From Bilabrum cf. latius (lineage: Eukaryota): 64,000 nt of DNA. A program made the position numbers and the translations under genes. The notes beneath the pieces were generated by a model. The model ran no database searches. It was not told where the DNA came from and saw only the letters and a list, made by a program, of their open reading frames with translations. This document shows, one piece after another, positions 5,776-34,900 of this stretch. The stretch lies in assembly GCA_965178125.1 (NCBI GenBank), contig OZ237735.1:868001-932000 (forward strand). The letters run 5' to 3'. Each line of letters begins with the position of its first letter. The first letter of the stretch is position 1.

Positions 5776-7788
5776 ATGGATGATAATGGGACGAATATGA
5801 GAGAAATTGAGCTGGAAGAATAGCCGTCTAGCTCGATTCGGTCAGATGCAAAGTCAGCTTCGGGCAATGTCGCACAAGCCGGTGAATCAATTGCAAGCAA
5901 ATCCGAGTCTGAAAAAGGTGCGTCGATTGATTCAGCTGGAGCCCCGAGGGCTTAGGGATCGGGAGTTTACGATGAAGAAGGCCGCGAGCTGATAGTAGAA
6001 GAGAGCAGTTCACCTGATGACCTCGAATAGGAAGACCTGCCAGAAACTTTGCGCGGAGAACCTGAGTGCGCATGTGGCGTGAAGTATGCCACGAAAGGGT
6101 ATCACTTAATGTTCTATCCGTTCGTCCACTACGTGAACGACTATCCGCAGCTGATCAAGGAGTGCCTTGCCGGGCTCTCTGTCGCCTTTGCGCAACTCAG
6201 CGATTCGATCGCTTTCTCTTTCATTGCTGGGGTGCCACCTGAGCAGGGCCTTCATGCTGCGTGGATCATTGGCTTAACAATGGGACTGCTGGGGTCGCGG
6301 CCAGGCATGATCAACGGGGCGACGGGCGTGCGAGCAGCGGTCATCGCACCGTATGTGGAGCAATACGGGGTCAGCTTTCTCTTCTACATCGTGGTGGCTA
6401 TCTCGATTTTCCAGTTTCTAGCTTCGTTCTTATCGCTGGCAAGGCTGGTCCGAATGGTGCCTCGTACCGTCATGGTCGGCTTCGTGTGCGGGCTTGCCAT
6501 CATCCTGGCGCTGGGGCAGCAGCTCGCGTTCAAGTACCCCGGGGAGGACAGGTGGAGGGACACGACGACCAGCCTCTGGATGCTGTTCGTGGCGACTTGT
6601 ACAGTTCTTGCTGCGGTGTTCGTGCCGATGATTCCGTATGCAGGCAAGGTCTTCCCGCCCTCCATGTGGGGAATTATCGCTGCCGTGGTGGTCGAGTTCG
6701 GCATAGTGCGCACGAGCGGGTACAGCACGCCCGCCATCGGAGATGTCGCGGACGCAGGCGGCAGCCTGCCAACTTTGTTCTTCCTGGACGATCGTTACGA
6801 CATCCCTCCCCTCAACTGGGAAGCCGTGCAGCAAGCAATCGTGCCTGCCTTTCTGGCTGCAGCCGCCGGAATGGTCGAAGCTGTCATGACCATGGAAGTG
6901 GTAAACGATCTAACGGAGACGGACAACCCGTATCCGGACCAGCAGCTGCTGTCACTTGGTATCGGCAACTTCCTGGCCGGGATGCTGGGAACAATGGGCG
7001 GGGGTGCAACCATCGGTCCCAGCATCATCAACTGCACCAACGGTGCCAATGGGCAGTACCGCCTGTCAGCCATTGTAGCTGCCGTGTTCATGCTCGTGAT
7101 CATCCTGGCGGCGAGCCCGCTCATTTCTGTGATTCCCACGGCGTCTTTGGTCGGCATTATGGCGGTGGTCTGCTTCCACACGTTCGAGTGGAGCGCGATT
7201 CCGGTGGTATTCTTCTCTCTCCTGCCGCAATCGTGGCGGGAGCACGAGTGGCTCGGAGGTCACGGGGTCAGGAAGATCAACAGGATGGAAGCAGTCGTCA
7301 TCATTGTCGTGACGGCGGTAACCGTCATCGCAGATCTATTCACCGCGGTGGCCGTAGGGGTTGCACTCACGGCTTGCGAGTACGCCTGGAGGGAAGGAGC
7401 CAGCCTCGCGGTTACCTCCAGGAAGGTCAGGGACGCCGATGGCAAGGTAGTCAGAGTGTACAGGCTGAATGGCCCGCTCTTCTTTGCATCAGCTATGGGG
7501 TTCATCAAGAAATTCGATCCGAAGCGGGACCCGGACGAAGTAGAGGTGCACTTTTAGGAGTCGCAGCTGCACGACTACTCTGGCATGCACGCGTTGAACG
7601 TGATCGGGGAGAAGTACAGGAAAGAAAAAAAGCACGTTCGCGTCCGTCACCTGTGCATACAGAGTGAGAGAAGGCTGCGAAAGGCCGATGCACTCGCGGA
7701 ATTTTTTTCGTACAAGCCCGAAGGAGTTGCTGAGGAGCTGTAGGACCCGGACCATCTCAACAGGGAGTCGACTAGCGTTCTTGTGTAA
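5776..7788 (+). CDS. SulP/SLC26 family anion transporter with C-terminal STAS domain, 670 aa with TAG read as sense
   Basis: ATG 5776, acidic N-terminal extension with TAG at 5821, 5953, 6028. SulP motifs LAGLSVAFAQL, AFSFIAGVPPEQGL, GSRPGMINGATG, VMVGFVCGLAI, QQLLSLGIGN...MGGGATIGPSIIN. STAS YRLNGPLFFASA...EVEVHF*ESQLHDYSGMHALNVIGEKY runs straight through TAG 7555; a further TAG at 7741; ends TAA 7786-7788. Confidence 0.93.
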
Positions 7789-7868
7789 GGTTGGTAAGAT
7801 TGCTAGGAGTGACTATTTATATTAATCGGTGTGTTACTTTATGAAAAGATATGTGTTAATGAATTCAA

Positions 7869-7888
7869 TGCATGCATGCATGCATGCA
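7869..7888. repeat. (TGCA)5 palindromic microsatellite in the convergent 3' intergenic region
   Basis: tgcatgcatgcatgcatgca read directly; lies in the AT-rich 187 bp between the SulP stop (7788) and the giant-gene stop (7976). Confidence 0.85.
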
Positions 7889-7975
7889 AAAATTGCAGTG
7901 CATTGCCTTGTGCCCACTTCTGCCTGGAACAAGGCCAAGCCGCACTCCTTAGTGAAGCACCCGTCTACTTGCTCT

Positions 7976-10900
7976 TTAGGTGTGTGCAGCGCCCTCAATC
8001 GCAATGACTTTCCACTGGTAGTCGCTGTTGACTTCAACGGTCCCTCCCAGAGCCATCGCTTGAACGTAAACATCACCATTGGCCAACGCGTGGGTCTAGC
8101 CAAACACGATGCCACCACCACTCGAATCGTACCGAGCTGAGGTTGCGGCTGCCGGGGCTTCCGCTAGCGTGAGCAGAATGATGGTAGCATCAGATGTCGT
8201 GAACGAAGTGCCATCCCACGAGATCGTGAGGCCGATCATCGCCATCTCGCCGTCTCGCACCTCCACCGTCGCGTCCGGGATTGCATCCCCTGTGGCGTAC
8301 TTGGTGACACCATAGTACGATGTGCCCACCTTGTGGAGTGAAACCATTTTACTCCCTCCAACGACCAGGTCGATGTGCCCACCGCTGGCTTCCACAGAGA
8401 CATCGTCTCCCTCGACGGAGACATCTCCAGTTGTGGTGATTTGAACACCACCTGATCCGCTTGTTATGTAGTGCGCCCCCGTCCCAGAGATACTGCTTCT
8501 AATATCCCCGCTTGCCTGTATGCTCACATCCCCGCCTGCTGCCTGCACGAGCACGTCGTTGTTGCTCCCAGTCGACTTGAGCACCGCGTGGCCGCCAGTG
8601 GCCAGGGCACTGACCGTTCCGCTGGTCGACTCGAGCAGAACATCGCTAGCTCTCAGTACGAGCTCCGTATCAGCCACGACGCTAACGCTTCCAAAAGAAG
8701 CGCGAGCTATCACCGACCCAGCTGCGCTCTAGATCAGCGCATCATCCGTTGCAAGCAATCTGAGGTCGTCAGTCGACCGGATCGTAGCAGTCGTCTCAGC
8801 TTTGATATCGACAGTGCCGCCCGTAGACACCATGTTTAAGCCGCCCGGTGATTCAAGGTGCATTCGGTTGGTCCCGCCGGCAGCAACAATGCTGACATGA
8901 CCCGCGGCAGCCTACAAGTCGATATCACCTCCTGAAGCTGCCAACCGCAAATCATCAGATGCTGCAAGCGCGATCTTACTGCTCGCCACTATCGACGTAT
9001 CACCAGCCGACTGAAGAACTATCCTCTTGGATGCACCAGGTGCCGAAAGCTCTACGTTCCCTTCAGACGATTGCACAGTCATGTCTCCCTCCGAGTCGAG
9101 ACTCATCTCTAGAGAAGTGCCCACGCTGGAATCAACTGCCCGAAGAGCGATGCCAGAGACAGGGTCGACGTCAAGAGCAACAGATCCGTCCCCTTGCGAG
9201 ATTTCAACGGATCCTGCAGAGGCCGAGCTAGCGGCCGAAGCGCCTTGTATACGAACAGTTCCACCCGAATTCCCTGCACCATTTCCAGAGCCGCCAATTA
9301 GACTGACGGAACCCCCGTTCCCAGACGAAGCTGCCGGACTGGACCGAAGAAGTAGGCCGGACCCACCACCACTAGATACCGTGACCGACGAACCCGACTG
9401 CAGAGAAACGATACCTGCAGATTCTACCGCAAACGTTGACGTAGTATCAACTGTAACCGCGCCAGACGCATCGATGTCCAGCGCGTCGCTCACCATACTC
9501 ACCATGCCGTCCGACACAAGGAACATGTCCTTGTTGTTGTCCGTCAGCAGGCTCATGTCTCCACTGGTGGCCTTCAGCGCCATGCCACTGGCGCCCACCA
9601 TGGCCACGGTGCTGTCCCCATCCAGCGTCACCTCGCCAGACGCATCGATGTCCAGCGCGTCGCTCACCATACTCACCATGCCGTCCGACACAAGGAACAT
9701 GTCCTTGTTATTGCCCGTCAGCAGGCTCATGTCTCCACTGGTGGCCTTCAGCGCCATGCCACTGGCGCCCACCATGGCCACGGTGCTGCCCCCATCCAGC
9801 GTCACCTCGCCAGACGCATCGATGTCCAGCGCCGCCGAGCTCAGGTCCATTTCGCCCGTGCTGGTCACGGCCACAGTGCTGTCCCCATCCAGCGTCACCT
9901 CGCCAGACGCATCGATGTCCAGCGCGTCGCTCACCATACTCACCATGCCGTCCGACACAAGGAACATGTCCTTGTTGTTGTCCGTCAGCAGGCTCATGTC
10001 TCCACTGGTGGCCTTCAGCGCCATGCCACTGGCGCCCACCATGGCCACAGTGCTGCCCCCATCCAGCGTCACCGTGCCAGACGCCTTTTGGTATAGACCA
10101 CTTGATGACATGATGGAGATTGATCCGGCAGCAGTACCGGTCCCAGTTGATAGAATTATGGCTCCTGATGCGGTAGTTCCACTTCCCGTCTGAATGTTTA
10201 TGTTCCCGCTGGCCCCGCTGCTTGCAGTTCCGGTTGCAAGTGAGACTGAGCCAGTTGGGCCTAGTGTGGACGCACCCGTTGACACTGAGACCGCACCTGA
10301 CGTAGCCGCCGGTCCAAGTGCCTGATGCGTCAAAATTGCGATTCCACCGCTTGTTCCAGTACTCCCAGATCTACCGCTGATGACCTAAACAGCCCCACCA
10401 TTTACTGCGGATGCCGTAGCAGCTCCAGCGTTAATCTCGATATTGGCGCCTACACCAGCTCCTGATGTGCCTGCAGCTAAAAGAACCTTGCCTGCTGCAC
10501 CCCCAGTCGTCGATCCAGTCATCAATGTGACCTGTCCAGACGTGCCCGACCCTGCAAGCCCGCTGCCCACTGTCACGCTCCCGCTCAGACCTGCCGTGGA
10601 CTTGCCAGTTACAACCGACACCGTGCCCGACGCTCCGTCAGACCCCACGCCATCCGCCGACCGCACCGTCACCAGCCCGCTCGTGGCCTCGCTGGCGCCC
10701 ACGCCAGATGCCACGGACACCAGCCCGCCCGTGCTGGACGTGTCCGTCGACTCACCGCCGAACACGTACACCGACCCGCCCACGCCCGATGACGCCTTCG
10801 AAGACGTCACTGACACAGACCCAGACGCGCCCAGCGAGGACTCGCCGGCCGACAGCACCAGCCATCCCACAGACCCGGACCCCACGTTCCCGGACTCCAC

Positions 10901-13900
10901 CAACACATGACCGCTGCTGCCCACGTGCGCCGCGCCGCTACGCAGCACCAGCCCGCCCGACGGGCCGCCGGAGCTCACGCCCGATCCCACCGTCACCGAC
11001 CCAGACCCGGAGCTTGACGCAGACCCGGACTCCAGACTCACAGACCCAGACGACCCCTTCACGCCAGACCCAGACCCCACTGACACTGACCCAGACGTGC
11101 CCGACCCTGCAAGCCCGCTGCCCACTGTCACGCTCCCGCTCAGACCCGCCGTGGACTTGCCAGATACCACCGACACCGTGCCCGACGCTCCGTCAGACCC
11201 CACGCCATCCGCCGACCGCACCGTCACCAGCCCGCTCGTGGCCTCGCTGGCGCCCACGCCAGATGCCACGGACACCAGCCCGCCCGTGCTGGACGTGTCC
11301 GTCGACTCACCGCCGAACACGTACACCGACCCGCCCACGCCCGATGACGCCTTCGAAGACGTCACTGACACAGACCCAGACGCGCCCAGCGAGGACTCGC
11401 CGGCCGACAGCACCAGCCATCCCACAGACCCGGACCCCACGTTCCCGGACTCCACCAACACATGACCGCTGCTGCCCACGTGCGCCGCGCCGCTACGCAG
11501 CACCAGCCCGCCCGACGGGCCGCCGGAGCTCACGCCCGATCCCACCGTCACCGACCCAGACCCGGAGCTTGACGCAGACCCGGACTCCAGACTCACAGAC
11601 CCAGACGACCCCTTCACGCCAGACCCAGACCCCACTGACACTGACCCAGACGTGCCCGACCCTGCAAGCCCGCTGCCCACTGTCACGCTCCCGCTCAGAC
11701 CCGCCGTGGACTTGCCAGATACAACCGACACCGTGCCCGACGCTCCGTCAGACCCCACGCCATCCGCCGACCGCACCGTCACCAGCCCGCTCGTGGCCTC
11801 GCTGGCGCCCACGCCAGATGCCACGGACACCAGCCCGCCCGTGCTGGACGTGTCCGTCGACTCACCGCCGAACACGTACACCGACCCGCCCACGCCCGAT
11901 GACGCCTTCGAAGACGTCACTGACACAGATCCAGACGCGCCCAGCGAGGACTCGCCGGCCGACAGCACCAGCCATCCCACAGACCCGGACCCCACGTTCC
12001 CGGACTCCACCAACACATGACCGCTGCTGCCCACGTGCGCCGCGCCGCTACGCAGCACCAGCCCGCCCGACGGGCCGCCGGAGCTCACGCCCGATCCCAC
12101 CGTCACCGACCCAGACCCGGAGCTTGACGCAGACCCGGACTCCAGACTCACAGACCCAGACGACCCCTTCACGCCAGACCCAGACCCCACTGACACTGAC
12201 CCAGACGTGCCCGACCCTGCAAGCCCGCTGCCCACTGTCACGCTCCCGCTCAGACCCGCCGTGGACTTGCCAGATACCACCGACACCGTGCCCGACGCTC
12301 CGTCAGACCCCACGCCATCCGCCGACCGCACCGTCACCAGCCCGCTCGTGGCCTCGCTGGCGCCCACGCCAGATGCCACGGACACCAGCCCGCCCGTGCT
12401 GGACGTGTCCGCCGACTCACCGCCGAACACGTACACCGACCCGCCCACGCCCGATGACGCCTTCGAAGACGTCACTGACACAGACCCAGACGCGCCCAGC
12501 GAGGACTCGCCGGCCGACAGCACCAGCCATCCCACAGACCCGGACCCCACGTTCCCGGACTCCACCAACACATGACCGCTGCTGCCCACGTGCGCCGCGC
12601 CGCTACGCAGCACCAGCCCGCCCGACGGGCCGCCGGAGCTCACGCCCGATCCCACCGTCACCGACCCAGACCCGGAGCTTGACGCAGACCCGGACTCCAG
12701 ACTCACAGACCCAGACGACCCCTTCACGCCAGACCCAGACCCCACTGACACTGACCCAGACGTGCCCGACCCTGCAAGCCCGCTGCCCACTGTCACGCTC
12801 CCGCTCAGACCCGCCGTGGACTTGCCAGATACAACCGACACCGTGCCCGACGCTCCGTCAGACCCCACGCCATCCGCCGACCGCACCGTCACCAGCCCGC
12901 TCGTGGCCTCGCTGGCGCCCACGCCAGATGCCACGGACACCAGCCCGCCCGTGCTGGACGTGTCCGTCGACTCACCGCCGAACACGTACACCGACCCGCC
13001 CACGCCCGATGACGCCTTCGAAGACGTCACTGACACAGATCCAGACGCGCCCAGCGAGGACTCGCCGGCCGACAGCACCAGCCATCCCACAGACCCGGAC
13101 CCCACGTTCCCGGACTCCACCAACACATGACCGCTGCTGCCCACGTGCGCCGCGCCGCTACGCAGCACCAGCCCGCCCGACGGGCCGCCGGAGCTCACGC
13201 CCGATCCCACCGTCACCGACCCAGACCCGGAGCTTGACGCAGACCCGGACTCCAGACTCACAGACCCAGACGACCCCTTCACGCCAGACCCAGACCCCAC
13301 TGACACTGACCCGGACTCGCCCACCGTCGCAGACCCAGACCCCACTGACACTGACCCAGACGTGCCCGACCCTGCAAGCCCGCTGCCCACTGTCACGCTC
13401 CCGCTCAGACCTGCCGTGGACTTGCCAGTTACCACCGACACCGTGCCCGACGCTCCGTCAGACCCCACGCCATCCGCCGACCGCACCGTCACCAGCCCGC
13501 TCGTGGCCTCGCTGGCGCCCACGCCAGATGCCACGGACACCAGCCCGCCCGTGCTGGACGTGTCCGTCGACTCACCGCCGAACACGTACACCGACCCGCC
13601 CACGCCCGATGACGCCTTCGAAGACGTCACTGACACAGACCCAGACGCGCCCAGCGAGGACTCGCCGGCCGACAGCACCAGCCATCCCACAGACCCGGAC
13701 CCCACGTTCCCGGACTCCACCAACACATGACCGCTGCTGCCCACGTGCGCCGCGCCGCTACGCAGCACCAGCCCGCCCGACGGGCCGCCGGAGCTCACGC
13801 CCGATCCCACCGTCACCGACCCAGACCCGGAGCTTGACGCAGACCCGGACTCCAGACTCACAGACCCAGACGACCCCTTCACGCCAGACCCAGACCCCAC

Positions 13901-16900
13901 TGACACTGACCCAGACGTGCCCGACCCTGCAAGCCCGCTGCCCACTGTCACGCTCCCGCTCAGACCCGCCGTGGACTTGCCAGATACCACCGACACCGTG
14001 CCCGACGCTCCGTCAGACCCCACGCCATCCGCCGACCGCACCGTCACCAGCCCGCTCGTGGCCTCGCTGGCGCCCACGCCAGATGCCACGGACACCAGCC
14101 CGCCCGTGCTGGACGTGTCCGTCGACTCACCGCCGAACACGTACACCGACCCGCCCACGCCCGATGACGCCTTCGAAGACGTCACTGACACAGACCCAGA
14201 CGCGCCCAGCGAGGACTCGCCGGCCGACAGCACCAGCCATCCCACAGACCCGGACCCCACGTTCCCGGACTCCACCAACACATGACCGCTGCTGCCCACA
14301 TGCGCCGCGCCGCTACGCAGCACCAGCCCGCCCGACGGGCCGCCGGAGCTCACGCCCGATCCCACCGTCACCGACCCAGACCCGGAGCTTGACGCAGACC
14401 CGGACTCCAGACTCACAGACCCAGACGACCCCTTCACGCCAGACCCAGATGACACAGACACTGACCCGGACTCGCCCACCGTCGCAGACCCAGACCCCAC
14501 TGACACTGACCCAGACGTGCCCGAACCTGCAAGCCCGCTGCCCACTGTCACGCTTCCGCTCAGACCCGCCGTGGACTTGCCAGATACCACCGACACCGTG
14601 CCCGACGCTCCGGCAGACCCCACGCCATCCGCCGACCGCACCGTCACCAGCCCGCTCGTGGCCACGCTGGCGCCCACGCCAGATGCCACGGACACCAGCC
14701 CGCCCGTGCTCGACGTGTCCGTCGACTCACCGCCGAACACGTACACCGACCCGCCCACGCCCGATGACGCCTTCGAAGACGTCACTGACACAGATCCAGA
14801 CGCGCCCAGCGAGGACTCGCCGGCCGACAGCACCAGCCATCCCACAGACCCGGACCCCACGTTCCCGGACTCCACCAACACATGACCGCTGCTGCCCACA
14901 TGCGCCGCGCCGCTACGCAGCACCAGCCCGCCCGACGGGCCGCCGGAGCTCACGCCCGATCCCACCGTCACCGACCCAGACCCGGAGCTTGACGCAGACC
15001 CGGACTCCAGACTCACAGACCCAGACGACCCCTTCACGCCAGACCCAGACCCCACTGACACTGACCCGGACTCGCCCACCGTCGCAGACCCAGACCCCAC
15101 TGACACTGACCCAGACGTGCCCGACCCTGCAAGCCCGCTGCCCACTGTCACGCTCCCGCTCAGACCCGCCGTGGACTTGCCAGATACCACCGACACCGTG
15201 CCCGACGCTCCGTCAGACCCCACGCCATCCGCCGACCGCACCGTCACCAGCCCGCTCGTGGCCTCGCTGGCGCCCACGCCAGATGCCACGGACACCAGCC
15301 CGCCCGTGCTGGACGTGTCCGTCGACTCACCGCCGAACACGTACACCGACCCGCCCACGCCCGATGACGCCTTCGAAGACGTCACTGACACAGACCCAGA
15401 CGCGCCCAGCGAGGACTCGCCGGCCGACAGCACCAGCCATCCCACAGACCCGGACCCCACGTTCCCGGACTCCACCAACACATGACCGCTGCTGCCCACG
15501 TGCGCCGCGCCGCTACGCAGCACCAGCCCGCCCGACGGGCCGCCGGAGCTCACGCCCGATCCCACCGTCACCGACCCAGACCCGGAGCTTGACGCAGACC
15601 CGGACTCCAGACTCACAGACCCAGACGACCCCTTCACGCCAGACCCAGACCCCACTGACACTGACCCAGACGTGCCCGACCCTGCAAGCCCGCTGCCCAC
15701 TGTCACGCTCCCGCTCAGACCCGCCGTGGACTTGCCAGTTACCACCGACACCGTGCCCGACGCTCCGTCAGACCCCACGCCATCCGCCGACCGCACCGTC
15801 ACCAGCCCGCTCGTGGCCTCGCTGGCGCCCACGCCAGATGCCACGGACACCAGCCCGCCCGTGCTCGACGTGTCCGTCGACTCACCGCCGAACACGTACA
15901 CCGACCCGCCCACGCCCGATGACGCCTTCGAAGACGTCACTGACACAGACCCAGACGCGCCCAGCGAGGACTCGCCGGCCGACAGCACCAGCCATCCCAC
16001 AGACCCGGACCCCACGTTCCCGGACTCCACCAACACATGACCGCTGCTGCCCACGTGCGCCGCGCCGCTACGCAGCACCAGCCCGCCCGACGGGCCGCCG
16101 GAGCTCACGCCCGATCCCACCGTCACCGACCCAGACCCGGAGCTTGACGCAGACCCGGACTCCAGACTCACAGACCCAGACGACCCCTTCACGCCAGACC
16201 CAGACCCCACTGACACTGACCCAGACGTGCCCGACCCTGCAAGCCCGCTGCCCACTGTCACGCTCCCGCTCAGACCCGCCGTGGACTTGCCAGTTACCAC
16301 CGACACCGTGCCCGACGCTCCGTCAGACCCCACGCCATCCGCCGACCGCACCGTCACCAGCCCGCTCGTGGCCTCGCTGGCGCCCACGCCAGATGCCACG
16401 GACACCAGCCCGCCCGTGCTCGACGTGTCCGTCGACTCACCGCCGAACACGTACACCGACCCGCCCACGCCCGATGACGCCTTCGAAGACGTCACTGACA
16501 CAGACCCAGACGCGCCCAGCGAGGACTCGCCGGCCGACAGCACCAGCCATCCCACAGACCCGGACCCCACGTTCCCGGACTCCACCAACACATGACCGCT
16601 GCTGCCCACGTGCGCCGCGCCGCTACGCAGCACCAGCCTGCCCGTCGGGCCGCCGGAGCTCACGCCCGATCCCACCGTCACCGACCCAGACCCGGAGCTT
16701 GACGCAGACCCGGACTCCAGACTCACAGACCCAGACGACCCCTCCACGCCAGACCCAGACCCCACTGACACTGACCCGGACTCGCCCACCGTCGCAGACC
16801 CAGACCCCACTGACACTGACCCAGACGTGCCCGACCCTGCAAGCCCGCTGCCCACTGTCACGCTCCCGCTCAGACCTGCCGTGGACTTGCCAGATACAAC

Positions 16901-19900
16901 CGACACCGTGCCCGACGCTCCGTCAGACCCCACGCCATCCGCCGACCGCACCGTCACCAGCCCGCTCGTGGCCTCGCTGGCGCCCACGCCAGATGCCACG
17001 GACACCAGCCCGCCCGTGCTGGACGTGTCCGTCGACTCACCGCCGAACACGTACACCGACCCGCCCACGCCCGATGACGCCTTCGAAGACGTCACTGACA
17101 CAGACCCAGACGCGCCCAGCGAGGACTCGCCGGCCGACAGCACCAGCCATCCCACAGACCCGGACCCCACGTTCCCGGACTCCACCAACACATGACCGCT
17201 GCTGCCCACGTGCGCCGCGCCGCTACGCAGCACCAGCCCGCCCGACGGGCCGCCGGAGCTCACGCCCGATCCCACCGTCACCGACCCAGACCCGGAGCTT
17301 GACGCAGACCCGGACTCCAGACTCACAGACCCAGACGACCCCTTCACGCCAGACCCAGACCCCACTGACACTGACCCAGACGTGCCCGACCCTGCAAGCC
17401 CGCTGCCCACTGTCACGCTTCCGCTCAGACCCGCCGTGGACTTGCCAGTTACAACCGACACCGTGCCCGACGCTCCGTCAGACCCCACGCCATCCGCCGA
17501 CCGCACCGTCACCAGCCCGCTCGTGGCCTCGCTGGCGCCCACGCCAGATGCCACGGACACCAGCCCGCCCGTGCTGGACGTGTCCGTCGACTCACCGCCG
17601 AACACGTACACCGACCCGCCCACGCCCGATGACGCCTTCGAAGACGTCACTGACACAGACCCAGACGCGCCCAGCGAGGACTCGCCGGCCGACAGCACCA
17701 GCCATCCCACAGACCCGGACCCCACGTTCCCGGACTCCACCAACACATGACCGCTGCTGCCCACGTGCGCCGCGCCGCTACGCAGCACCAGCCCGCCCGA
17801 CGGGCCGCCGGAGCTCACGCCCGATCCCACCGTCACCGACCCAGACCCGGAGCTTGACGCAGACCCGGACTCCAGACTCACAGACCCAGACGACCCCTTC
17901 ACGCCAGACCCAGATGACACAGACACTGACCCGGATGACACAGACACTGACCCGGACTCGCCCACCGTCGCAGACCCAGACCCCACTGACACTGACCCAG
18001 ACGTGCCCGACCCTGCAAGCCCGCTGCCCACTGTCACGCTCCCGCTCAGACCCGCCGTGGACTTGCCAGATACAACCGACACCGTGCCCGACGCTCCGTC
18101 AGACCCCACGCCATCCGCCGACCGCACCGTCACCAGCCCGCTCGTGGCCACGCTGGCGCCCACGCCAGATGCCACGGACACCAGCCCGCCCGTGCTCGAC
18201 GTGTCCGTCGACTCACCGCCGAACACGTACACCGACCCGCCCACGCCCGATGACGCCTTCGAAGACGTCACTGACACAGACCCAGACGCGCCCAGCGAGG
18301 ACTCGCCGGCCGACAGCACCAGCCATCCCACAGACCCGGACCCCACGTTCCCGGACTCCACCAACACATGACCGCTGCTGCCCACGTGCGCCGCGCCGCT
18401 ACGCAGCACCAGCCCGCCCGACGGGCCGCCGGAGCTCACGCCCGATCCCACCGTCACCGACCCAGACCCGGAGCTTGACGCAGACCCGGACTCCAGACTC
18501 ACAGACCCAGACGACCCCTTCACGCCAGACCCAGATGACACTGACACTGACCCAGACGTGCCCGACGTCGCAGACCCAGACCCCACTGACACTGACCCAG
18601 ACGTGCCCGACCCTGCAAGCCCGCTGCCCACTGTCACGCTCCCGCTCAGACCCGCCGTGGACTTGCCAGATACCACCGACACCGTGCCCGACGCTCCGGC
18701 AGACCCCACGCCATCCGCCGACCGCACCGTCACCAGCCCGCTCGTGGCCTCGCTGGCGCCCACGCCAGATGCCACGGACACCAGCCCGCCCGTGCTGGAC
18801 GTGTCCGTCGACTCACCGCCGAACACGTACACCGACCCGCCCACGCCCGATGACGCCTTCGAAGACGTCACTGACACAGACCCAGACGCGCCCAGCGAGG
18901 ACTCGCCGGCCGACAGCACCAGCCATCCCACAGACCCGGACCCCACGTTCCCGGACTCCACCAACACATGACCGCTGCTGCCCACGTGCGCCGCGCCGCT
19001 ACGCAGCACCAGCCCGCCCGACGGGCCGCCGGAGCTCACGCCCGATCCCACCGTCACCGACCCAGACCCGGAGCTTGACGCAGACCCGGACTCCAGACTC
19101 ACAGACCCAGACGACCCCTTCACGCCAGACCCAGACCCCACTGACACTGATCCAGACGTGCCCGACCCTGCAAGCCCGCTGCCCACTGTCACGCTCCCGC
19201 TCAGACCCGCCGTGGACTTGCCAGTTACCACCGACACCGTGCCCGACGCTCCGTCAGACCCCACGCCATCCGCCGACCGCACCGTCACCAGCCCGCTCGT
19301 GGCCTCGCTGGCGCCCACGCCAGATGCCACGGACACCAGCCCGCCCGTGCTGGACGTGTCCGTCGACTCACCGCCGAACACGTACACCGACCCGCCCACG
19401 CCCGATGACGCCTTCGAAGACGTCACTGACACAGACCCAGACGCGCCCAGCGAGGACTCGCCGGCCGACAGCACCAGCCATCCCACAGACCCGGACCCCA
19501 CGTTCCCGGACTCCACCAACACATGACCGCTGCTGCCCACGTGCGCCGCGCCGCTACGCAGCACCAGCCCGCCCGACGGGCCGCCGGAGCTCACGCCCGA
19601 TCCCACCGTCACCGACCCAGACCCGGAGCTTGACGCAGACCCGGACTCCAGACTCACAGACCCAGACGACCCCTTCACGCCAGACCCAGATGACACTGAC
19701 ACTGACCCAGACGTGCCCGACCCTGCAAGCCCGCTGCCCACTGTCACGCTCCCGCTCAGACCCGCCGTGGACTTGCCAGATACCACCGACACCGTGCCCG
19801 ACGCTCCGGCAGACCCCACGCCATCCGCCGACCGCACCGTCACCAGCCCGCTCGTGGCCTCGCTGGCGCCCACGCCAGATGCCACGGACACCAGCCCGCC

Positions 19901-22900: not shown

Positions 22901-25900
22901 CCCGCCCACGCCCGATGACGCCTTCGAAGACGTCACTGACACAGACCCAGACGCGCCCAGCGAGGACTCGCCGGCCGACAGCACCAGCCATCCCACAGAC
23001 CCGGACCCCACGTTCCCGGACTCCACCAACACATGACCGCTGCTGCCCACGTGCGCCGCGCCGCTACGCAGCACCAGCCCGCCCGACGGGCCGCCGGAGC
23101 TCACGCCCGATCCCACCGTCACCGACCCAGACCCGGAGCTTGACGCAGACCCGGACTCCAGACTCACAGACCCAGACGACCCCTTCACGCCAGACCCAGA
23201 CCCCACTGACACTGACCCAGACGTGCCCGACCCTGCAAGCCCGCTGCCCACTGTCACGCTCCCGCTCAGACCCGCCGTGGACTTGCCAGATACCACCGAC
23301 ACCGTGCCCGACGCTCCGTCAGACCCCACGCCATCCGCCGACCGCACCGTCACCAGCCCGCTCGTGGCCTCGCTGGCGCCCGCGCCAGATGCCACGGACA
23401 CCAGCCCGCCCGTGCTGGACGTGTCCGTCGACTCACCGCCGAACACGTACACCGACCCGCCCACGCCCGATGACGCCTTCGAAGACGTCACTGACACAGA
23501 CCCAGACGCGCCCAGCGAGGACTCGCCGGCCGACAGCACCAGCCATCCCACAGACCCGGACCCCACGTTCCCGGACTCCACCAACACATGACCGCTGCTG
23601 CCCACGTGCGCCGCGCCGCTACGCAGCACCAGCCCGCCCGACGGGCCGCCGGAGCTCACGCCCGATCCCACCGTCACCGACCCAGACCCGGAGCTTGACG
23701 CAGACCCGGACTCCAGACTCACAGACCCAGACGACCCCTTCACGCCAGACCCAGACCCCACTGACACTGACCCGGACTCGCCCACAGTCGCAGACCCAGA
23801 CCCCACTGACACTGACCCAGACGTGCCCGAACCTGCAAGCCCGCTGCCCACTGTCACGCTCCCGCTCAGACCCGCCGTGGACTTGCCAGATACCACCGAC
23901 ACCGTGCCCGACGCTCCGTCAGACCCCACGCCATCCGCCGACCGCACCGTCACCAGCCCGCTCGTGGCCTCGCTGGCGCCCACGCCAGATGCCACGGACA
24001 CCAGCCCGCCCGTGCTGGACGTGTCCGTCGACTCACCGCCGAACACGTACACCGACCCGCCCACGCCCGATGACGCCTTCGAAGACGTCACTGACACAGA
24101 TCCAGACGCGCCCAGCAAGGACTCGCCGGCCGACAGCACCAGCCATCCCACAGACCCGGACCCCACGTTCCCGGACTCCACCAACACATGACCGCTGCTG
24201 CCCACGTGCGCCGCGCCGCTACGCAGCACCAGCCCGCCCGACGGGCCGCCGGAGCTCACGCCCGATCCCACCGTCACCGACCCAGACCCGGAGCTTGACG
24301 CAGACCCGGACTCCAGACTCACAGACCCAGACGACCCCTTCACGCCAGACCCAGATGACACAGACACTGACCCAGACGTGCCCGACCCTGCAAGCCCGCT
24401 GCCCACTGTCACGCTTCCGCTCAGACCCGCCGTGGACTTGCCAGATACCACCGACACCGTGCCCGACGCTCCGTCAGACCCCACGCCATCCGCCGACCGC
24501 ACCGTCACCAGCCCGCTCGTGGCCTCGCTGGCGCCCACGCCAGATGCCACGGACACCAGCCCGCCCGTGCTGGACGTGTCCGTCGACTCACCGCCGAACA
24601 CGTACACCGACCCGCCCACGCCCGATGACGCCTTCGAAGACGTCACTGACACAGACCCAGACGCGCCCAGCGAGGACTCGCCGGCCGACAGCACCAGCCA
24701 TCCCACAGACCCGGACCCCACGTTCCCGGACTCCACCAACACATGACCGCTGCTGCCCACGTGCGCCGCGCCGCTACGCAGCACCAGCCCGCCCGACGGG
24801 CCGCCGGAGCTCACGCCCGATCCCACCGTCACCGACCCAGACCCGGAGCTTGACGCAGACCCGGACTCCAGACTCACAGACCCAGACGACCCCTTCACGC
24901 CAGACCCAGACCCCACTGACACTGACCCGGACTCGCCCACAGTCGCAGACCCAGACCCCACTGACACTGACCCAGACGTGCCCGACCCTGCAAGCCCGCT
25001 GCCCACTGTCACGCTCCCGCTCAGACCCGCCGTGGACTTGCCAGATACAACCGACACCGTGCCCGACGCTCCGTCAGACCCCACGCCATCCGCCGACCGC
25101 ACCGTCACCAGCCCGCTCGTGGCCTCGCTGGCGCCCACGCCAGATGCCACGGACACCAGCCCGCCCGTGCTGGACGTGTCCGTCGACTCACCGCCGAACA
25201 CGTACACCGACCCGCCCACGCCCGATGACGCCTTCGAAGACGTCACTGACACAGACCCAGACGCGCCCAGCGAGGACTCGCCGGCCGACAGCACCAGCCA
25301 TCCCACAGACCCGGACCCCACGTTCCCGGACTCCACCAACACATGACCGCTGCTGCCCACGTGCGCCGCGCCGCTACGCAGCACCAGCCCGCCCGACGGG
25401 CCGCCGGAGCTCACGCCCGATCCCACCGTCACCGACCCAGACCCGGAGCTTGACGCAGACCCGGACTCCAGACTCACAGACCCAGACGACCCCTTCACGC
25501 CAGACCCAGACCCCACTGACACTGACCCAGACGTGCCCGACCCTGCAAGCCCGCTGCCCACTGTCACGCTCCCGCTCAGACCCGCCGTGGACTTGCCAGA
25601 TACAACCGACACCGTGCCCGACGCTCCGGCAGACCCCACGCCATCCGCCGACCGCACCGTCACCAGCCCGCTCGTGGCCACGCTGGCGCCCACGCCAGAT
25701 GCCACGGACACCAGCCCGCCCGTGCTGGACGTGTCCGCCGACTCACCGCCGAACACGTACACCGACCCGCCCACGCCCGATGACGCCTTCGAAGACGTCA
25801 CTGACACAGACCCAGACGCGCCCAGCGAGGACTCGCCGGCCGACAGCACCAGCCATCCCACAGACCCGGACCCCACGTTCCCGGACTCCACCAACACATG

Positions 25901-28900
25901 ACCGCTGCTGCCCACGTGCGCCGCGCCGCTACGCAGCACCAGCCCGCCCGACGGGCCGCCGGAGCTCACGCCCGATCCCACCGTCACCGACCCAGACCCG
26001 GAGCTTGACGCAGACCCGGACTCCAGACTCACAGACCCAGACGACCCCTTCACGCCAGACCCAGATGACACTGACACTGACCCAGACGTGCCCGACCCTG
26101 CAAGCCCGCTGCCCACTGTCACGCTCCCGCTCAGACCCGCCGTGGACTTGCCAGATACCACCGACACCGTGCCCGACGCTCCGTCAGACCCCACGCCATC
26201 CGCCGACCGCACCGTCACCAGCCCGCTCGTGGCCACGCTGGCGCCCACGCCAGATGCCACGGACACCAGCCCGCCCGTGCTGGACGTGTCCGCCGACTCA
26301 CCGCCGAACACGTACACCGATCCGCCCACGCCCGATGACGCCTTCGAAGACGTCACTGACACAGACCCAGACGCGCCCAGCGAGGACTCGCCGGCCGACA
26401 GCACCAGCCATCCCACAGACCCGGACCCCACGTTCCCGGACTCCACCAACACATGACCGCTGCTGCCCACGTGCGCCGCGCCGCTACGCAGCACCAGCCC
26501 GCCCGACGGGCCGCCGGAGCTCACGCCCGATCCCACCGTCACCGACCCAGACCCGGAGCTTGACGCAGACCCGGACTCCAGACTCACAGACCCAGACGAC
26601 CCCTTCACGCCAGACCCAGACCCCACTGACACTGACCCAGACGTGCCCGACCCTGCAAGCCCGCTGCCCACTGTCACGCTCCCGCTCAGACCCGCCGTGG
26701 ACTTGCCAGATACAACCGACACCGTGCCCGACGCTCCGTCAGACCCCACGCCATCCGCCGACCGCACCGTCACCAGCCCGCTCGTGGCCTCGCTGGCGCC
26801 CACGCCAGATGCCACGGACACCAGCCCGCCCGTGCTCGACGTGTCCGTCGACTCACCGCCGAACACGTACACCGACCCGCCCACGCCCGATGACGCCTTC
26901 GAAGACGTCACTGACACAGACCCAGACGCGCCCAGCGAGGACTCGCCGGCCGACAGCACCAGCCATCCCACAGACCCGGACCCCACGTTCCCGGACTCCA
27001 CCAACACATGACCGCTGCTGCCCACGTGCGCCGCGCCGCTACGCAGCACCAGCCCGCCCGACGGGCCGCCGGAGCTCACGCCCGATCCCACCGTCACCGA
27101 CCCAGACCCGGAGCTTGACGCAGACCCGGACTCCAGACTCACAGACCCAGACGACCCCTTCACGCCAGACCCAGACCCCACTGACACTGACCCGGACTCG
27201 CCCACCGTCGCAGACCCAGACCCCACTGACACTGACCCAGACGTGCCCGACCCTGCAAGCCCGCTGCCCACTGTCACGCTCCCGCTCAGACCCGCCGTGG
27301 ACTTGCCAGATACCACCGACACCGTGCCCGACGCTCCGTCAGACCCCACGCCATCCGCCGACCGCACCGTCACCAGCCCGCTCGTGGCCACGCTGGCGCC
27401 CACGCCAGATGCCACGGACACCAGCCCGCCCGTGCTCGACGTGTCCGTCGACTCACCGCCGAACACGTACACCGACCCGCCCACGCCCGATGACGCCTTC
27501 GAAGACGTCACTGACACAGACCCAGACGCGCCCAGCGAGGACTCGCCGGCCGACAGCACCAGCCATCCCACAGACCCGGACCCCACGTTCCCGGACTCCA
27601 CCAACACATGACCGCTGCTGCCCACGTGCGCCGCGCCGCTACGCAGCACCAGCCCGCCCGACGGGCCGCCGGAGCTCACGCCCGATCCCACCGTCACCGA
27701 CCCAGACCCGGAGCTTGACGCAGACCCGGACTCCAGACTCACAGACCCAGACGACCCCTTCACGCCAGACCCAGACCCCACTGACACTGACCCAGACGTG
27801 CCCGACCCTGCAAGCCCGCTGCCCACTGTCACGCTCCCGCTCAGACCTGCCGTGGACTTGCCAGTTACCACCGACACCGTGCCCGACGCTCCGGCAGACC
27901 CCACGCCATCCGCCGACCGCACCGTCACCAGCCCGCTCGTGGCCTCGCTGGCGCCCACGCCAGATGCCACGGACACCAGCCCGCCCGTGCTGGACGTGTC
28001 CGTCGACTCACCGCCGAACACGTACACCGACCCGCCCACGCCCGATGACGCCTTCGAAGACGTCACTGACACAGACCCAGACGCGCCCAGCGAGGACTCG
28101 CCGGCCGACAGCACCAGCCATCCTACAGACCCGGACCCCACGTTCCCGGACTCCACCAACACATGACCGCTGCTGCCCACGTGCGCCGCGCCGCTACGCA
28201 GCACCAGCCCGCCCGACGGGCCGCCGGAGCTCACGCCCGATCCCACCGTCACCGACCCAGACCCGGAGCTTGACGCAGACCCGGACTCCAGACTCACAGA
28301 CCCAGACGACCCCTTCACGCCAGACCCAGACCCCACTGACACTGACCCAGACGTGCCCGACCCTGCAAGCCCGCTGCCCACTGTCACGCTCCCGCTCAGA
28401 CCCGCCGTGGACTTGCCAGATACAACCGACACCGTGCCCGACGCTCCGTCAGACCCCACGCCATCCGCCGACCGCACCGTCACCAGCCCGCTCGTGGCCT
28501 CGCTGGCGCCCACGCCAGATGCCACGGACACCAGCCCGCCCGTGCTGGACGTGTCCGTCGACTCACCGCCGAACACGTACACCGACCCGCCCACGCCCGA
28601 TGACGCCTTCGAAGACGTCACTGACACAGACCCAGACGCGCCCAGCGAGGACTCGCCGGCCGACAGCACCAGCCATCCCACAGACCCGGACCCCACGTTC
28701 CCGGACTCCACCAACACATGACCGCTGCTGCCCACGTGCGCCGCGCCGCTACGCAGCACCAGCCCGCCCGACGGGCCGCCGGAGCTCACGCCCGATCCCA
28801 CCGTCACCGACCCAGACCCGGAGCTTGACGCAGACCCGGACTCCAGACTCACAGACCCAGACGACCCCTTCACGCCAGACCCAGACCCCACTGACACTGA

Positions 28901-31900
28901 CCCAGACGTGCCCGACCCTGCAAGCCCGCTGCCCACTGTCACGCTCCCGCTCAGACCCGCCGTGGACTTGCCAGATACCACCGACACCGTGCCCGACGCT
29001 CCGGCAGACCCCACGCCATCCGCCGACCGCACCGTCACCAGCCCGCTCGTGGCCTCGCTGGCGCCCACGCCAGATGCCACGGACACCAGCCCGCCCGTGC
29101 TGGACGTGTCCGTCGACTCACCGCCGAACACGTACACCGACCCGCCCACGCCCGATGACGCCTTCGAAGACGTCACTGACACAGACCCAGACGCGCCCAG
29201 CGAGGACTCGCCGGCCGACAGCACCAGCCATCCCACAGACCCGGACCCCACGTTCCCGGACTCCACCAACACATGACCGCTGCTGCCCACGTGCGCCGCG
29301 CCGCTACGCAGCACCAGCCCGCCCGACGGGCCGCCGGAGCTCACGCCCGATCCCACCGTCACCGACCCAGACCCGGAGCTTGACGCAGACCCGGACTCCA
29401 GACTCACAGACCCAGACGACCCCTTCACGCCAGACCCAGATGACACTGACACTGACCCAGACGTGCCCGACGTCGCAGACCCAGACCCCACTGACACTGA
29501 CCCAGACGTGCCCGACCCTGCAAGCCCGCTGCCCACTGTCACGCTCCCGCTCAGACCCGCCGTGGACTTGCCAGATACCACCGACACCGTGCCCGACGCT
29601 CCGGCAGACCCCACGCCATCCGCCGACCGCACCGTCACCAGCCCGCTCGTGGCCTCGCTGGCGCCCACGCCAGATGCCACGGACACCAGCCCGCCCGTGC
29701 TGGACGTGTCCGTCGACTCACCGCCGAACACGTACACCGACCCGCCCACGCCCGATGACGCCTTCGAAGACGTCACTGACACAGACCCAGACGCGCCCAG
29801 CGAGGACTCGCCGGCCGACAGCACCAGCCATCCCACAGACCCGGACCCCACGTTCCCGGACTCCACCAACACATGACCGCTGCTGCCCACGTGCGCCGCG
29901 CCGCTACGCAGCACCAGCCCGCCCGACGGGCCGCCGGAGCTCACGCCCGATCCCACCGTCACCGACCCAGACCCGGAGCTTGACGCAGACCCGGACTCCA
30001 GACTCACAGACCCAGACGACCCCTTCACGCCAGACCCAGACCCCACTGACACTGACCCAGACGTGCCCGACCCTGCAAGCCCGCTGCCCACTGTCACGCT
30101 CCCGCTCAGACCCGCCGTGGACTTGCCAGATACCACCGACACCGTGCCCGACGCTCCGTCAGACCCCACGCCATCCGCCGACCGCACCGTCACCAGCCCG
30201 CTCGTGGCCTCGCTGGCGCCCACGCCAGATGCCACGGACACCAGCCCGCCCGTGCTGGACGTGTCCGTCGACTCACCGCCGAACACGTACACCGACCCGC
30301 CCACGCCCGATGACGCCTTCGAAGACGTCACTGACACAGACCCAGACGCGCCCAGCGAGGACTCGCCGGCCGACAGCACCAGCCATCCCACAGACCCGGA
30401 CCCCACGTTCCCGGACTCCACCAACACATGACCGCTGCTGCCCACGTGCGCCGCGCCGCTACGCAGCACCAGCCCGCCCGACGGGCCGCCGGAGCTCACG
30501 CCCGATCCCACCGTCACCGACCCAGACCCGGAGCTTGACGCAGACCCGGACTCCAGACTCACAGACCCAGACGACCCCTTCACGCCAGACCCAGACCCCA
30601 CTGACACTGACCCGGACTCGCCCACCGTCGCAGACCCAGACCCCACTGACACTGACCCAGACGTGCCCGACCCTGCAAGCCCGCTGCCCACTGTCACGCT
30701 CCCGCTCAGACCCGCCGTGGACTTGCCAGATACCACCGACACCGTGCCCGACGCTCCGGCAGACCCCACGCCATCCGCCGACCGCACCGTCACCAGCCCG
30801 CTCGTGGCCTCGCTGGCGCCCACGCCAGATGCCACGGACACCAGCCCGCCCGTGCTGGACGTGTCCGTCGACTCACCGCCGAACACGTACACCGACCCGC
30901 CCACGCCCGATGACGCCTTCGAAGACGTCACTGACACAGACCCAGACGCGCCCAGCGAGGACTCGCCGGCCGACAGCACCAGCCATCCCACAGACCCGGA
31001 CCCCACGTTCCCGGACTCCACCAACACATGACCGCTGCTGCCCACGTGCGCCGCGCCGCTACGCAGCACCAGCCCGCCCGACGGGCCGCCGGAGCTCACG
31101 CCCGATCCCACCGTCACCGACCCAGACCCGGAGCTTGACGCAGACCCGGACTCCAGACTCACAGACCCAGACGACCCCTTCACGCCAGACCCAGACCCCA
31201 CTGACACTGACCCAGACGTGCCCGACCCTGCAAGCCCGCTGCCCACTGTCACGCTCCCGCTCAGACCCGCCGTGGACTTGCCAGATACCACCGACACCGT
31301 GCCCGACGCTCCGGCAGACCCCACGCCATCCGCCGACCGCACCGTCACCAGCCCGCTCGTGGCCTCGCTGGCGCCCACGCCAGATGCCACGGACACCAGC
31401 CCGCCCGTGCTGGACGTGTCCGTCGACTCACCGCCGAACACGTACACCGACCCGCCCACGCCCGATGACGCCTTCGAAGACGTCACTGACACAGACCCAG
31501 ACGCGCCCAGCGAGGACTCGCCGGCCGACAGCACCAGCCATCCCACAGACCCGGACCCCACGTTCCCGGACTCCACCAACACATGACCGCTGCTGCCCAC
31601 GTGCGCCGCGCCGCTACGCAGCACCAGCCCGCCCGACGGGCCGCCGGAGCTCACGCCCGATCCCACCGTCACCGACCCAGACCCGGAGCTTGACGTAGGC
31701 CCGGATTGTAGTCGTACTTCGCCAGATGCCTGTTGTATTAGATCACTTGATGACATGATGGAGACTGATCCGGCAGCAGCGCCAGTCCCAGTTGATAGAA
31801 TTATGGCTCCCGATGAAGTAGTCCCACTTCCAGTCTGAATGTTTATATTCCCGCTGGCCCCGCTGCTCGCAGTTCCGGTTGCAAGTGAGACCGAACCAGT

Positions 31901-34900
31901 TGGGCCTAGTGTGGACGCACCCGTTGACACTGAGACCGCACCTGACGTAGCCGCCGGTCCAAGTGCCTGATGCGTCAAAATTGCGATTCCTCCGCTTGTT
32001 CCAGTACTCTCGGATCTACCGCTGATGACCTAAACAGCCCCACCATTTGCTGCGGATGCCGTAGCAGCTCCAGCGTTTATCTCGATATTGGCGCCAACCC
32101 CAGTTCCGGATGTGCCTGCAGCTAAAAGAACCTTGCCTGCTGCACCCCCAGTAGTAGATCCAGTGCCCAACGTGAGCTGTCCAGACGACCCTGCGGTAGC
32201 ATCTCCGGTTTCGATCGCAATAGCCCCTGACGATCTCGAAATACCCGACTGGATGTTGACAACCCCAGAGGATGTGCTTCCACCAGCCGTCTAGAGCTGA
32301 AGTTCACCACCGGAACCAGATGATGATGAACCAGATACAACCGAAACAATTCCACCACTGCCAGAGTTGGTGCCACCAGAGGCAATAGACACAGCTGCAG
32401 CCGCACCATCTATTGATGAGCCGGCAACCAGACTGACATCACCAGCACTACCGCTAGTTCCGGTTCCTGAGGCAATCGCAACATCGCCAGACCCACCTAC
32501 GGCCCCACCCATGCCTGACGATATTTGAATACTGCCGGAGTCACCTCCATTCACAGAGTTTCCACTTCCGGAAAGCAGTGATACATGCCCACCAGTCGGT
32601 TGAGCAGAGGCATCTGATCCACCAACTCCCGCAGAGAGAACAATGGAGCCCCCAGCTCCTGCGACACCATTATTGCTTGCACCTGCCCCACCATAGATGA
32701 GAACAGCGCCACCAGATCCAGTTCCACCAACGCCAGCATCAACCAAAACGTTGCCGCCGCTTCCAACAACAGATGAACCAATAACAAGCGAAATATCGCC
32801 TGCTTGGGACGACCCCACGGAAGAGCCGACCTACGCAACCAAATCACCAGTACCGGCTCCTTGACCTGATCGCAGATACAAACTACCCGACGCTGCGGAT
32901 GAAAGCCCACTAGAAAAATACACATCACCAGAATCACCAGATACTGCTGACCCACTGCCAACACTGACTTCTCCGGATGAACCACCAGCCAAACCAGATC
33001 TAAGCCAAATAGAACCAGACAAAGACCTTGATCCTGCCCCTGTCGTCAAACTCAAAGCTCCAGATACCCCGCTAGACGTCGACCCAGACCCCACTGACAC
33101 TGACCCAGACGTGCCCGACCCTACAAGCCCGCTGCCCACTGTCACGCTCCCGCTCAGACCCGCCGTGGACTTGCCAGATACCACCGACACCGTGCCCGAC
33201 GCTCCGTCAGACCCCACGCCATCCGCCGACCGCACCGTCACCAGCCCGCTCGTGGCCTCGCTGGCGCCCACGCCAGATGCCACGGACACCAGCCCGCCCG
33301 TGCTGGACGTGTCCGTCGACTCACCGCCGAACACGTACACCGACCCGCCCACGCCCGATGACGCCTTCGAAGACGTCACTGACACAGACCCAGACGCGCC
33401 CAGCGAGGACTCGCCGGCCGACAGCACCAGCCATCCCACAGACCCGGACCCCACGTTCCCGGACTCCACCAACACATGACCGCTGCTGCCCAAAACGCTA
33501 GACCCGGTGCCCATACGCAGCGACCCAGTCGACCCGGACCAAGCCGACCCAGTCAGCAGTGATCCTGACCCACTGCTGCCCACGTGCGCCGCGCCGCTAC
33601 GCAGCACCAGCCCGCCCGACGGGCCGCCGGAGCTCACGCCCGATCCCACCGTCACCGACCCAGACCCGGAGCTTGACGCAGACCCGGACTCCAGACTCAC
33701 AGACCCAGACGATCCCTTCACGCCAGACCCAGATGACACAGACACTGACCCGGACTCGCCCACCGTCGCAGACCCAGACCCCACTGACACTGACCCAGAC
33801 GTGCCCGACCCTGCAAGCCCGCTGCCCACTGTCACGCTCCCGCTCAGACCCGCCGTGGACTTGCCAGATACCACCGACACCGTGCCCGACGCTCCGGCAG
33901 ACCCCACGCCATCCGCCGACCGCACCGTCACCAGCCCGCTCGTGGCCTCGCTGGCGCCCACGCCAGATGCCACGGACACCAGCCCGCCCGTGCTGGACGT
34001 GTCCGTCGACTCACCGCCGAACACGTACACCGACCCGCCCACGCCCGATGACGCCTTCGAAGACGTCACTGACACAGACCCAGACGCGCCCAGCGAGGAC
34101 TCGCCGGCCGACAGCACCAGCCATCCCACAGACCCGGACCCCACGTTCCCGGACTCCACCAACACATGACCGCTGCTGCCCACATGCGCCGCGCCGCTAC
34201 GCAGCACCAGCCCGCCCGACGGGCCGCCGGAGCTCACGCCCGATCCCACCGTCACCGACCCAGACCCGGAGCTTGACGCAGACCCGGACTCCAGACTCAC
34301 AGACCCAGACGACCCCTTCACGCCAGACCCAGATGACACAGACACAGACCCGGACTCGCCTACCGTCGCAGACCCAGACCCCACTGACACTGACCCAGAC
34401 GTGCCCGACCCTGCAAGCCCGCTGCCCACTGTCACGCTCCCGCTCAGACCCGCCGTGGACTTGCCAGATACCACCGACACCGTGCCCGACGCTCCGGCAG
34501 ACCCCACGCCATCCGCCGACCGCACCGTCACCAGCCCGCTCGTGGCCTCGCTGGCGCCCACGCCAGATGCCACGGACACCAGCCCGCCCGTGCTGGACGT
34601 GTCCGTCGACTCACCGCCAAACACGTACACCGACCCGCCCACGCCCGATGACGCCTTCGAAGACGTCACTGACACAGACCCAGACGTGCCCAGCGAGGAC
34701 TCGCCGGCCGACAGCACCAGCCATCCCACAGACCCGGACCCCACGTTCCCGGACTCCACCAACACATGACCGCTGCTGCCCACGTGCGCCGCGCCGCTAC
34801 GCAGCACCAGCCCGCCCGACGGGCCGCCGGAGCTCACGCCCGATCCCACCGTCACCGACCCAGACCCGGAGCTTGACGCAGACCCGGACTCCAGACTCAC

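Follow-up and report, generated by a model that had tools for sequence, protein, structure and literature searches.

The present study examined a 64,000-nucleotide (nt) stretch filed under Bilabrum cf. latius (contig OZ237735.1 of GenBank assembly GCA_965178125.1, positions 868,001 to 932,000 of the forward strand), hereafter the window, in which the codon TAG lies inside each of five genes: a giant gene rich in serine (Ser) and glycine (Gly), and four flank genes encoding a SET-domain protein, two proteins of unknown family (unkA and unkB) and a SulP/STAS anion transporter. It is close to certain that UAG is an ordinary sense codon here and no longer a stop, and UAA and UGA are the sole terminators, the pattern of NCBI table 15. 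Comparison with orthologues points to glutamine (Gln) as the residue probably inserted, and to this reading, UAG = Gln with UAA and UGA as stops, we assign a probability of about 0.8. The window is nuclear DNA of a protist with a compact genome.

TAG inside genes, TAA and TGA at their ends

Across 5,891 codons in 11 non-repeat gene pieces, taken from the window and from a relative found by a metagenome scan (contigs L001 and L002), TAG occurs in frame 38 times and neither TAA nor TGA occurs at all. Twenty-six of these TAGs are exonic and belong to the five window genes, the other 12 to the relative's gene pieces. As off-frame controls, frames 2 and 3 of these sequences contain 75 and 62 TAG, 36 and 21 TAA, and 128 and 126 TGA, respectively. 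Gene ends, a small sample of five from the window and five from the relative, comprise four TAA, six TGA and no TAG. The stop preference differs between the two, the window using TAA at 4/5 and TGA at 1/5 of its ends and the relative TGA at 5/5; both avoid TAG.

The four flank genes (positions 1-8000) are open only when TAG is read through, and because TAG lies inside them as well, the readthrough is organism-wide rather than confined to the giant gene. TAG is found within conserved genes of the window organism and of two or more relatives, and its positions often differ between them. If it encodes Gln, it would account for 38 of the 179 TAG, CAG and CAA codons in the sampled genes, about one fifth of Gln codons.

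Codes in which both UAA and UAG (UAR) encode Gln, corresponding to table 6, occur in many ciliates, Hexamita, Streblomastix, ulvophyte algae and Amoeboaphelidium, and resemble the present case in that a stop codon passes to Gln via a tRNA-Gln one anticodon change away. They differ from it in their use of TAA: with CAA and CAG at 58:83, 26.6 in-frame TAA codons would be expected if TAR were Gln, whereas none was seen (P = 3e-12), and TAA ends four of the five window genes. Table 6 was therefore ruled out, and TAG alone is taken to be reassigned.

In principle TAG could still be a stop, the in-frame copies being pseudogene lesions, assembly errors, introns, RNA-edited sites or points of low-level readthrough. 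One TAG of the naive unkA open reading frame (ORF), at 4176, does fall in an intron and was excluded from the coding count, and no public run that contains this sequence is on record as RNA. We nevertheless regard this explanation as far-fetched, given that five genes in two species are interrupted by TAG only, never by TAA or TGA, that TAG terminates none of the ten gene ends, and that protein conservation carries on past the TAGs. The SulP transporter domain follows three N-terminal TAGs and shares 81% overall identity with that of the relative, and the SulP TAGs stand in ungapped alignment with homologues, hence they are not introns. Inefficient readthrough, moreover, should be unable to pass five TAGs per ~700 codons.

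The TAGs are also present, unchanged, in independent public data. Positions 150-8800 of the window were found in nine public runs of five studies, and the contigs of four runs from four studies (X1, X5, X6 and X7) show 0 other letters and 0 gaps against the window over this stretch, spanning all 21 of its exonic TAG codons. At 1299-1344, a short GCN (poly-alanine) repeat inside the SET gene that was skipped in read placement, the contigs of all four runs break. In runs X5 and X6 the contigs start and stop at gene borders, covering SET at 183-1298 and 1345-2364, unkA at 2415-4102 joined to 4197-4245, unkB at 4340-5602, SulP at 5737-7731 or 5737-7829, and the giant gene from 7833 onward; for SET and SulP, the distance between the ends of these transcript-like contigs and the start or stop codon is 14-41 nt. 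The joint in the X5 contig omits 94 nt (4103-4196) with GT..AG ends on the minus strand, the sole intron seen in the four flank genes, whereas run X1 carries 1345-8800 in one DNA-like piece that includes the 94 nt. X5 and X6 thus appear to hold transcripts, although neither is on record as RNA; taken as such, they make the genes nuclear and spliced, and the TAGs, which the spliced and gene-bounded contigs retain, unedited as far as assembled contigs show.

The same 8.6 kb is identical in X1, X5, X6 and X7, which are filed under four organism labels, and this suggests one strain travelling with, or contaminating, other cultures or samples.

The residue inserted at UAG

Codon-level alignments of five syntenic gene pairs between the window and L001/L002 placed 32 of the 38 TAG sites opposite a residue: Gln seven times, glutamate (Glu) four, Gly, leucine (Leu) and Ser three each, threonine and lysine (Lys) two each, and seven residues once. 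All three Leu partners in this loose set lie in contexts of at most 17% identity. A strict set, requiring at least 40% identity in the surrounding ±6 residues and no gaps, retained 13 sites, with Gln at four (all CAG), Glu at two, and aspartate (Asp), Lys, histidine (His), Gly, valine (Val), methionine (Met) and Ser at one each. A third, closer relative, represented by protein fragments, added four sites: Gln opposite the window TAG at 5145 in unkB, and Glu, Lys and Met opposite those at 3885, 3288 and 3006 in unkA. Its fragment P0107 also has Gln at a site that is TAG in L002 and His in the window. The strict sites including the third relative number 17, with five Gln, three Glu, two Lys, two Met and one each of Asp, His, Gly, Val and Ser. 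Five Gln among 17 partners compares with a 2.3% background (P = 3e-5), and Gln is the maximum-likelihood identity over these sites.

Glu, the second commonest partner, is the closest competitor, and precedents for it exist: UAG is reportedly read as Glu in the ciliate of McGowan 2023, and UAR encodes Glu in Blastocrithidia. The context PLD*SPAV (the asterisk marking TAG) is matched by PLDESPAV in the third relative, and several TAGs stand within acidic runs such as LE*ED and EEL*DPD. Over the 17 sites, however, Glu falls below Gln by 3.4 log-likelihood (lnL) units with BLOSUM62, or by 11.9 with a matrix derived from the same alignments, and exchange of Glu for Gln would yield far fewer than the four Gln found among the first 13 partners (P = 0.001). 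The self-conservation of ordinary Glu in these alignments is 69%. A Glu-encoding TAG would be expected at 22% of conserved Glu positions, yet it was found at 2 of 38 (P = 0.005); the corresponding expectation for Gln, 33% of conserved Gln positions, agrees with the 4 of 18 observed (P = 0.23). We consider Glu an improbable assignment.

Lys, another single residue such as Leu, Ser, tyrosine (Tyr) or tryptophan (Trp), or ambiguous decoding by more than one tRNA would fit the spread of nine different residues over the 17 partners, two of them Lys. Lys nevertheless trails Gln by 5.6 lnL (BLOSUM62) or 11.5 lnL (own matrix), and Leu, Tyr, Trp and Ser are outside the six best candidates listed, even the sixth of which is more than 10 lnL short of Gln; with the first 13 sites alone, Ser had scored -9.6 lnL (BLOSUM62). 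Leu, Tyr and Trp are absent from the strict partners, although Leu is 76% self-conserved, and a UAG = Leu code of the type known as exLh was rejected on this count. This group of alternatives is very unlikely.

An alignment of 27 SulP sequences allowed individual TAG columns to be compared with distant homologues. The relative's TAG in DYP*LIKEC, where the window has CAG, occupies a column where 22 of 25 distant homologues carry Gln and one carries Glu. The column of the window's SulP TAG 594 is variable (Asp 7, isoleucine 5, His 3, Leu 3, and others); the relative's codon at this place is CAG. At the relative's TAG137 (Lys103 in the window), the 22 homologues show Glu 10 times, Lys five times and Gln never, which favours Glu.

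A first-pass annotation of the same DNA had already read TAG as Gln, from the repeats of the giant protein itself. Its seven in-frame TAGs (8096, 8729, 8912, 10385, 32030, 32291 and 32831) are all present, as are the contexts it quoted, DDALI*SAAG, GDIDL*AAAGHVSI, GELQL*TAG and GAV*VISG (twice), and the sibling strands set beside them, NDVLVQAAGGDVSIQASG, RIVLQSAG, NINIQTG, VNIQSG, VRLQSG, GSIQISSG, VLVESG and VSLESG. Each TAG was compared with its eight closest ungapped ±6-residue matches in the rest of the non-redundant sequence, and the 52 non-TAG neighbours comprised six Gln (background 1.6%), three Glu and 11 Ser. Gln appears among the siblings of 8729, 8912, 32291 and 8096; the claim that siblings carry Gln was selective, since Ser makes up five of seven siblings at each GAV*VISG site and 32831, which the annotation did not discuss, departs from the pattern. 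There the siblings are Val, Gly, Val, Gly, alanine, Met, Asp and Gly, so this position is not consistently polar. Calibrated on known residues, the test ranks Tyr at 0, Gln at -0.3, Glu at -2.5 and Leu at -7.7 lnL, and its power is low (probability of the same residue for Gln, 0.06). The test separates Gln from neither Glu nor Tyr, the latter being level with it, and the caution that the repeats alone leave Glu open was well placed. The repeat pattern is real but cannot name the residue; Gln is the best-supported reading through orthologues and homologues instead. Alignment of TAG columns to orthologues, which the annotation had named as a check, was run here on the five genes and gave Gln as the commonest partner.

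Several observations weigh against Gln. The sample is small, with 38 TAG sites and 17 of them well aligned. Gln occupies just 5/17 partners, a lower share than the 52% at which ordinary Gln is self-conserved in these alignments; the close third relative has Glu, Lys and Met at three of its four readable sites; and the TAG137 column described above lacks Gln altogether. Two TAG sites of the giant protein face Ser and Gly in the orthologue, and Ser siblings recur at GAV*VISG. A tRNA gene scan of the 64-kb window and of contigs L001-L004 found none. The lower conservation could arise if TAG persists mostly where constraint is weak, or if a minority of the alignments are wrong. Support for Gln is accordingly moderate, coming from 17 well-aligned sites and a single highly conserved column rather than from a genome-wide comparison.

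If UAG is Gln, the decoding tRNA would be a tRNA-Gln whose anticodon, CUA, differs by a single change from that of tRNA-Gln(CUG). Such an anticodon would be unable to read UAA, which would be the only way for UAA to remain a stop, following the logic of the available text of PMC5304391 and PMC11687900. The release factor eRF1 would have lost recognition of UAG, and its motifs of interest are GTS, NIKS and YxCxxxF (PMC5304391, available text); the DNA analysed contains no eRF1 gene.

The giant gene and its neighbours

Read with table 11, positions 8096 to 63997 of the minus strand appear as five long ORFs, which TAG readthrough fuses into a single frame at 7976..64000. This frame has at least 18,673 codons, its 5' end lying beyond the window, and contains exactly seven in-frame TAGs, with no TAA or TGA ahead of the terminal TAA at 7976-7978. 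The encoded protein is 29% Ser, 24% Gly and 16% Val, and contains 88 tandem near-identical units, of 200 residues in 57 cases and 185 in 24. These were counted by script, as the unit of ~600 nt exceeds the 500-nt limit of Tandem Repeats Finder, which returned 0 rows.

All seven TAGs are confined to the two non-repetitive stretches of the protein, one in its middle and one C-terminal. On the minus strand, 8096..8098 (IVFG*THAL) faces a GGC Gly codon of the orthologue in a gapped context, 8729..8731 (DDALI*SAAG) a CAA Gln codon in a loose alignment, and 8912..8914 (GDIDL*AAAG), within a DUF2345-like stretch, a gap. The TAG at 10385..10387 (GAV*VISG) is opposite AGC Ser and is a paralogue of the one at 32030..32032 (GAV*VISG), which lies in a duplicated segment; the remaining two are at 32291..32293 (GELQL*TAG) and 32831..32833 (DLVA*VGSS, with Val or Gly on sibling strands).

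DUF2345 (Pfam PF10106) matches residues 456-542 of the 807-residue C-terminal piece with 54.0 bits (gathering cut-off 30.7; E = 2.1e-14). This domain is the C-terminal beta-helix of VgrG-type proteins and is otherwise described from bacteria. An orthologous C-terminus with the same end occupies the same relative place in the related species (L001 5257-6912, minus strand). A PDB sequence search with the C-terminus of the giant protein gave only chance-level matches to catalase-peroxidase (E = 0.28), and an AlphaFold model of the C-terminal 408 residues, built on a two-row alignment, is all-beta and of low confidence, with a mean predicted local distance difference test (pLDDT) score of 55.6.

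Antisense to the giant gene, the plus strand holds open frames at 10708-31698 (6,996 residues) and 33028-63999 (>10,000 residues). We take them to be a by-product of the GC-rich, stop-poor repeat rather than genes; the minus-strand frame was taken as the gene because of its Pfam match and the conserved orthologue with the same end.

The flank genes are arranged on both strands. The SET-domain gene (197..2350, plus strand; Pfam SET, 9e-8) has 717 codons, a TAA stop and in-frame TAGs at 356, 425, 611, 656 and 887, and its orthologue is at L002 3-2042. Next come unkA (2595..4245, minus strand), which ends in TAA, carries the GT..AG intron at 4103-4196 and has exonic TAGs at 2745, 2973, 3006, 3288 and 3885, and unkB (4731..5582, minus strand), with 283 codons, a TGA stop and TAGs at 4749, 4932, 5145 and 5244. 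The SulP/STAS gene (5776..7788, plus strand; Sulfate_transp, 1.9e-28) spans 670 codons, ends in TAA and has TAGs at 5821, 5953, 6028, 7555 and 7741. Guanine-cytosine (GC) content is 0.55-0.58 in the flank (positions 1-8000) and 55-70% in coding sequence. Genes are packed very tightly over 150-8800, where the uncovered spacers measure 3-134 nt (2365-2414, 4246-4339, 5603-5736 and 7830-7832).

Relatives, known codes and meaning

The order SET, unkA, unkB, SulP and giant Ser/Gly-rich C-terminus is the same in L001/L002 as in the window. The SulP gene of this relative is 74% identical to the window's in DNA and 81% in protein, and its own in-frame TAGs are mostly at positions other than those of the window. 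The third relative is closer, its SulP being 99% identical, and four of its protein fragments (P0058, P0106, P0107 and P0108) end exactly before window TAG positions, namely SulP 594, unkA 2973, and unkB 5244 and 4932. Gene calling under the standard code truncated all four at TAG.

More distant SulP genes (56-61% identity) lie at L003 2368-3991 and L004 4211-6315, on contigs with GC contents of 0.64 and 0.71. They are interrupted by frame-switching gaps resembling introns, and their matched parts contain no TAG in frame and so yield no TAG columns; they may be standard-code neighbours of the recoded lineage. Genome and viral contig collections searched with protein P0003 gave no further DNA of the lineage. 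The SET N-terminus, with its five TAG sites, had no near-length match in the protein collection, shorter fragments not being searched, and the ESM Atlas returned only generic SulP clusters.

The homologues of SulP are eukaryotic, the nearest named ones being from Cafeteria roenbergensis (54% identity) and two Choanoeca species (45-48%), with no ciliate among the named relatives. A quick SulP tree, computed without P0009 and P0029 (truncated or mis-predicted models), sets the window protein beside Cafeteria with a Shimodaira-Hasegawa-like approximate likelihood ratio (SH-aLRT) support of 93, and was flagged for long-branch attraction; on this one gene, the placement may serve as a lead only.

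The code is a further instance of a rare, already known variant. The available text of PMC5304391 and PMC11687900 lists, as nuclear codes with differing meanings of UAG and UAA, those of Iotanema, an uncultured rhizarian, Scotinosphaera and a few ciliate lineages. In the fornicate Iotanema spirale, UAG is Gln and UAA and UGA are stops, as in table 15, with UAA at 104 and UGA at 15 of the ends among the transcripts examined, and a change in the GTS motif of eRF1 has been reported (PMC5304391, available text); within its clade the code change is specific to Iotanema, according to the accessible part of PMC9161772. The two cases are alike in that UAG alone passes to Gln, and UAA is the main terminator (4/5 ends in the window) with UGA also a stop. 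They differ in that nothing ties the window organism to fornicates, its SulP being nearest to Cafeteria and its flank GC 55-58%.

Among ciliates, UAG = Gln has been described for Protocruzia tuzeti and two phyllopharyngean lineages, UAG = Leu for other phyllopharyngeans, and suppressor tRNAs with a CUA anticodon for two metagenome-assembled genomes (MAGs) (PMC11687900, available text). There, too, UAG is uncoupled from UAA and Gln is a recurrent outcome. Phyllopharyngea, however, have GC contents of 27.4-53.6% and UGA as their rarest stop (same portions of PMC11687900), whereas coding GC here is 55-70% and the relative's ends are TGA at 5/5. The organism does not look like a ciliate because of this coding GC, the frequent TGA in the relative and the presence of several genes in the 64-kb window. 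UAG-only reassignment in a non-ciliate nuclear genome has parallels in the uncultured rhizarian (exLh), where UAG is Leu, and in Scotinosphaera, where it is Ser (PMC11687900, PMC5304391, available text); here Leu accounts for none and Ser for one of the 17 partners, and neither is among the six best candidates. A literature search for a GC-rich non-ciliate with UAG = Gln met known cases only, most subscription journals being outside its coverage.

We tentatively propose, at somewhat less than even odds, that the sequences belong to an undescribed clade of GC-rich protists with compact genomes, with UAG = Gln and UAA and UGA as stops, which arose independently of Iotanema and the ciliates, has at least three diverged members and is maybe a stramenopile group near the bicosoecids, as one gene tree would have it. 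If so, the code common to the window organism, the relative with 99% identical SulP and the L001/L002 species (74% DNA identity) would make the change ancestral to the group, and TAG codons would turn over quickly between species.

For annotation, these assemblies need TAG = Gln, as otherwise the giant gene, with its >18,000 codons, and the genes beside it are split into pieces; standard-code gene calling has already left TAG-cut proteins such as the four fragments above in public databases. The case would also bear on the codon-capture idea cited in PMC11687900 (available text), since low GC cannot explain the loss of UAG here. Nuclear codes that split UAG from UAA are rare, and, if the reading is true, a further, probably non-ciliate and GC-rich lineage would represent another independent origin.

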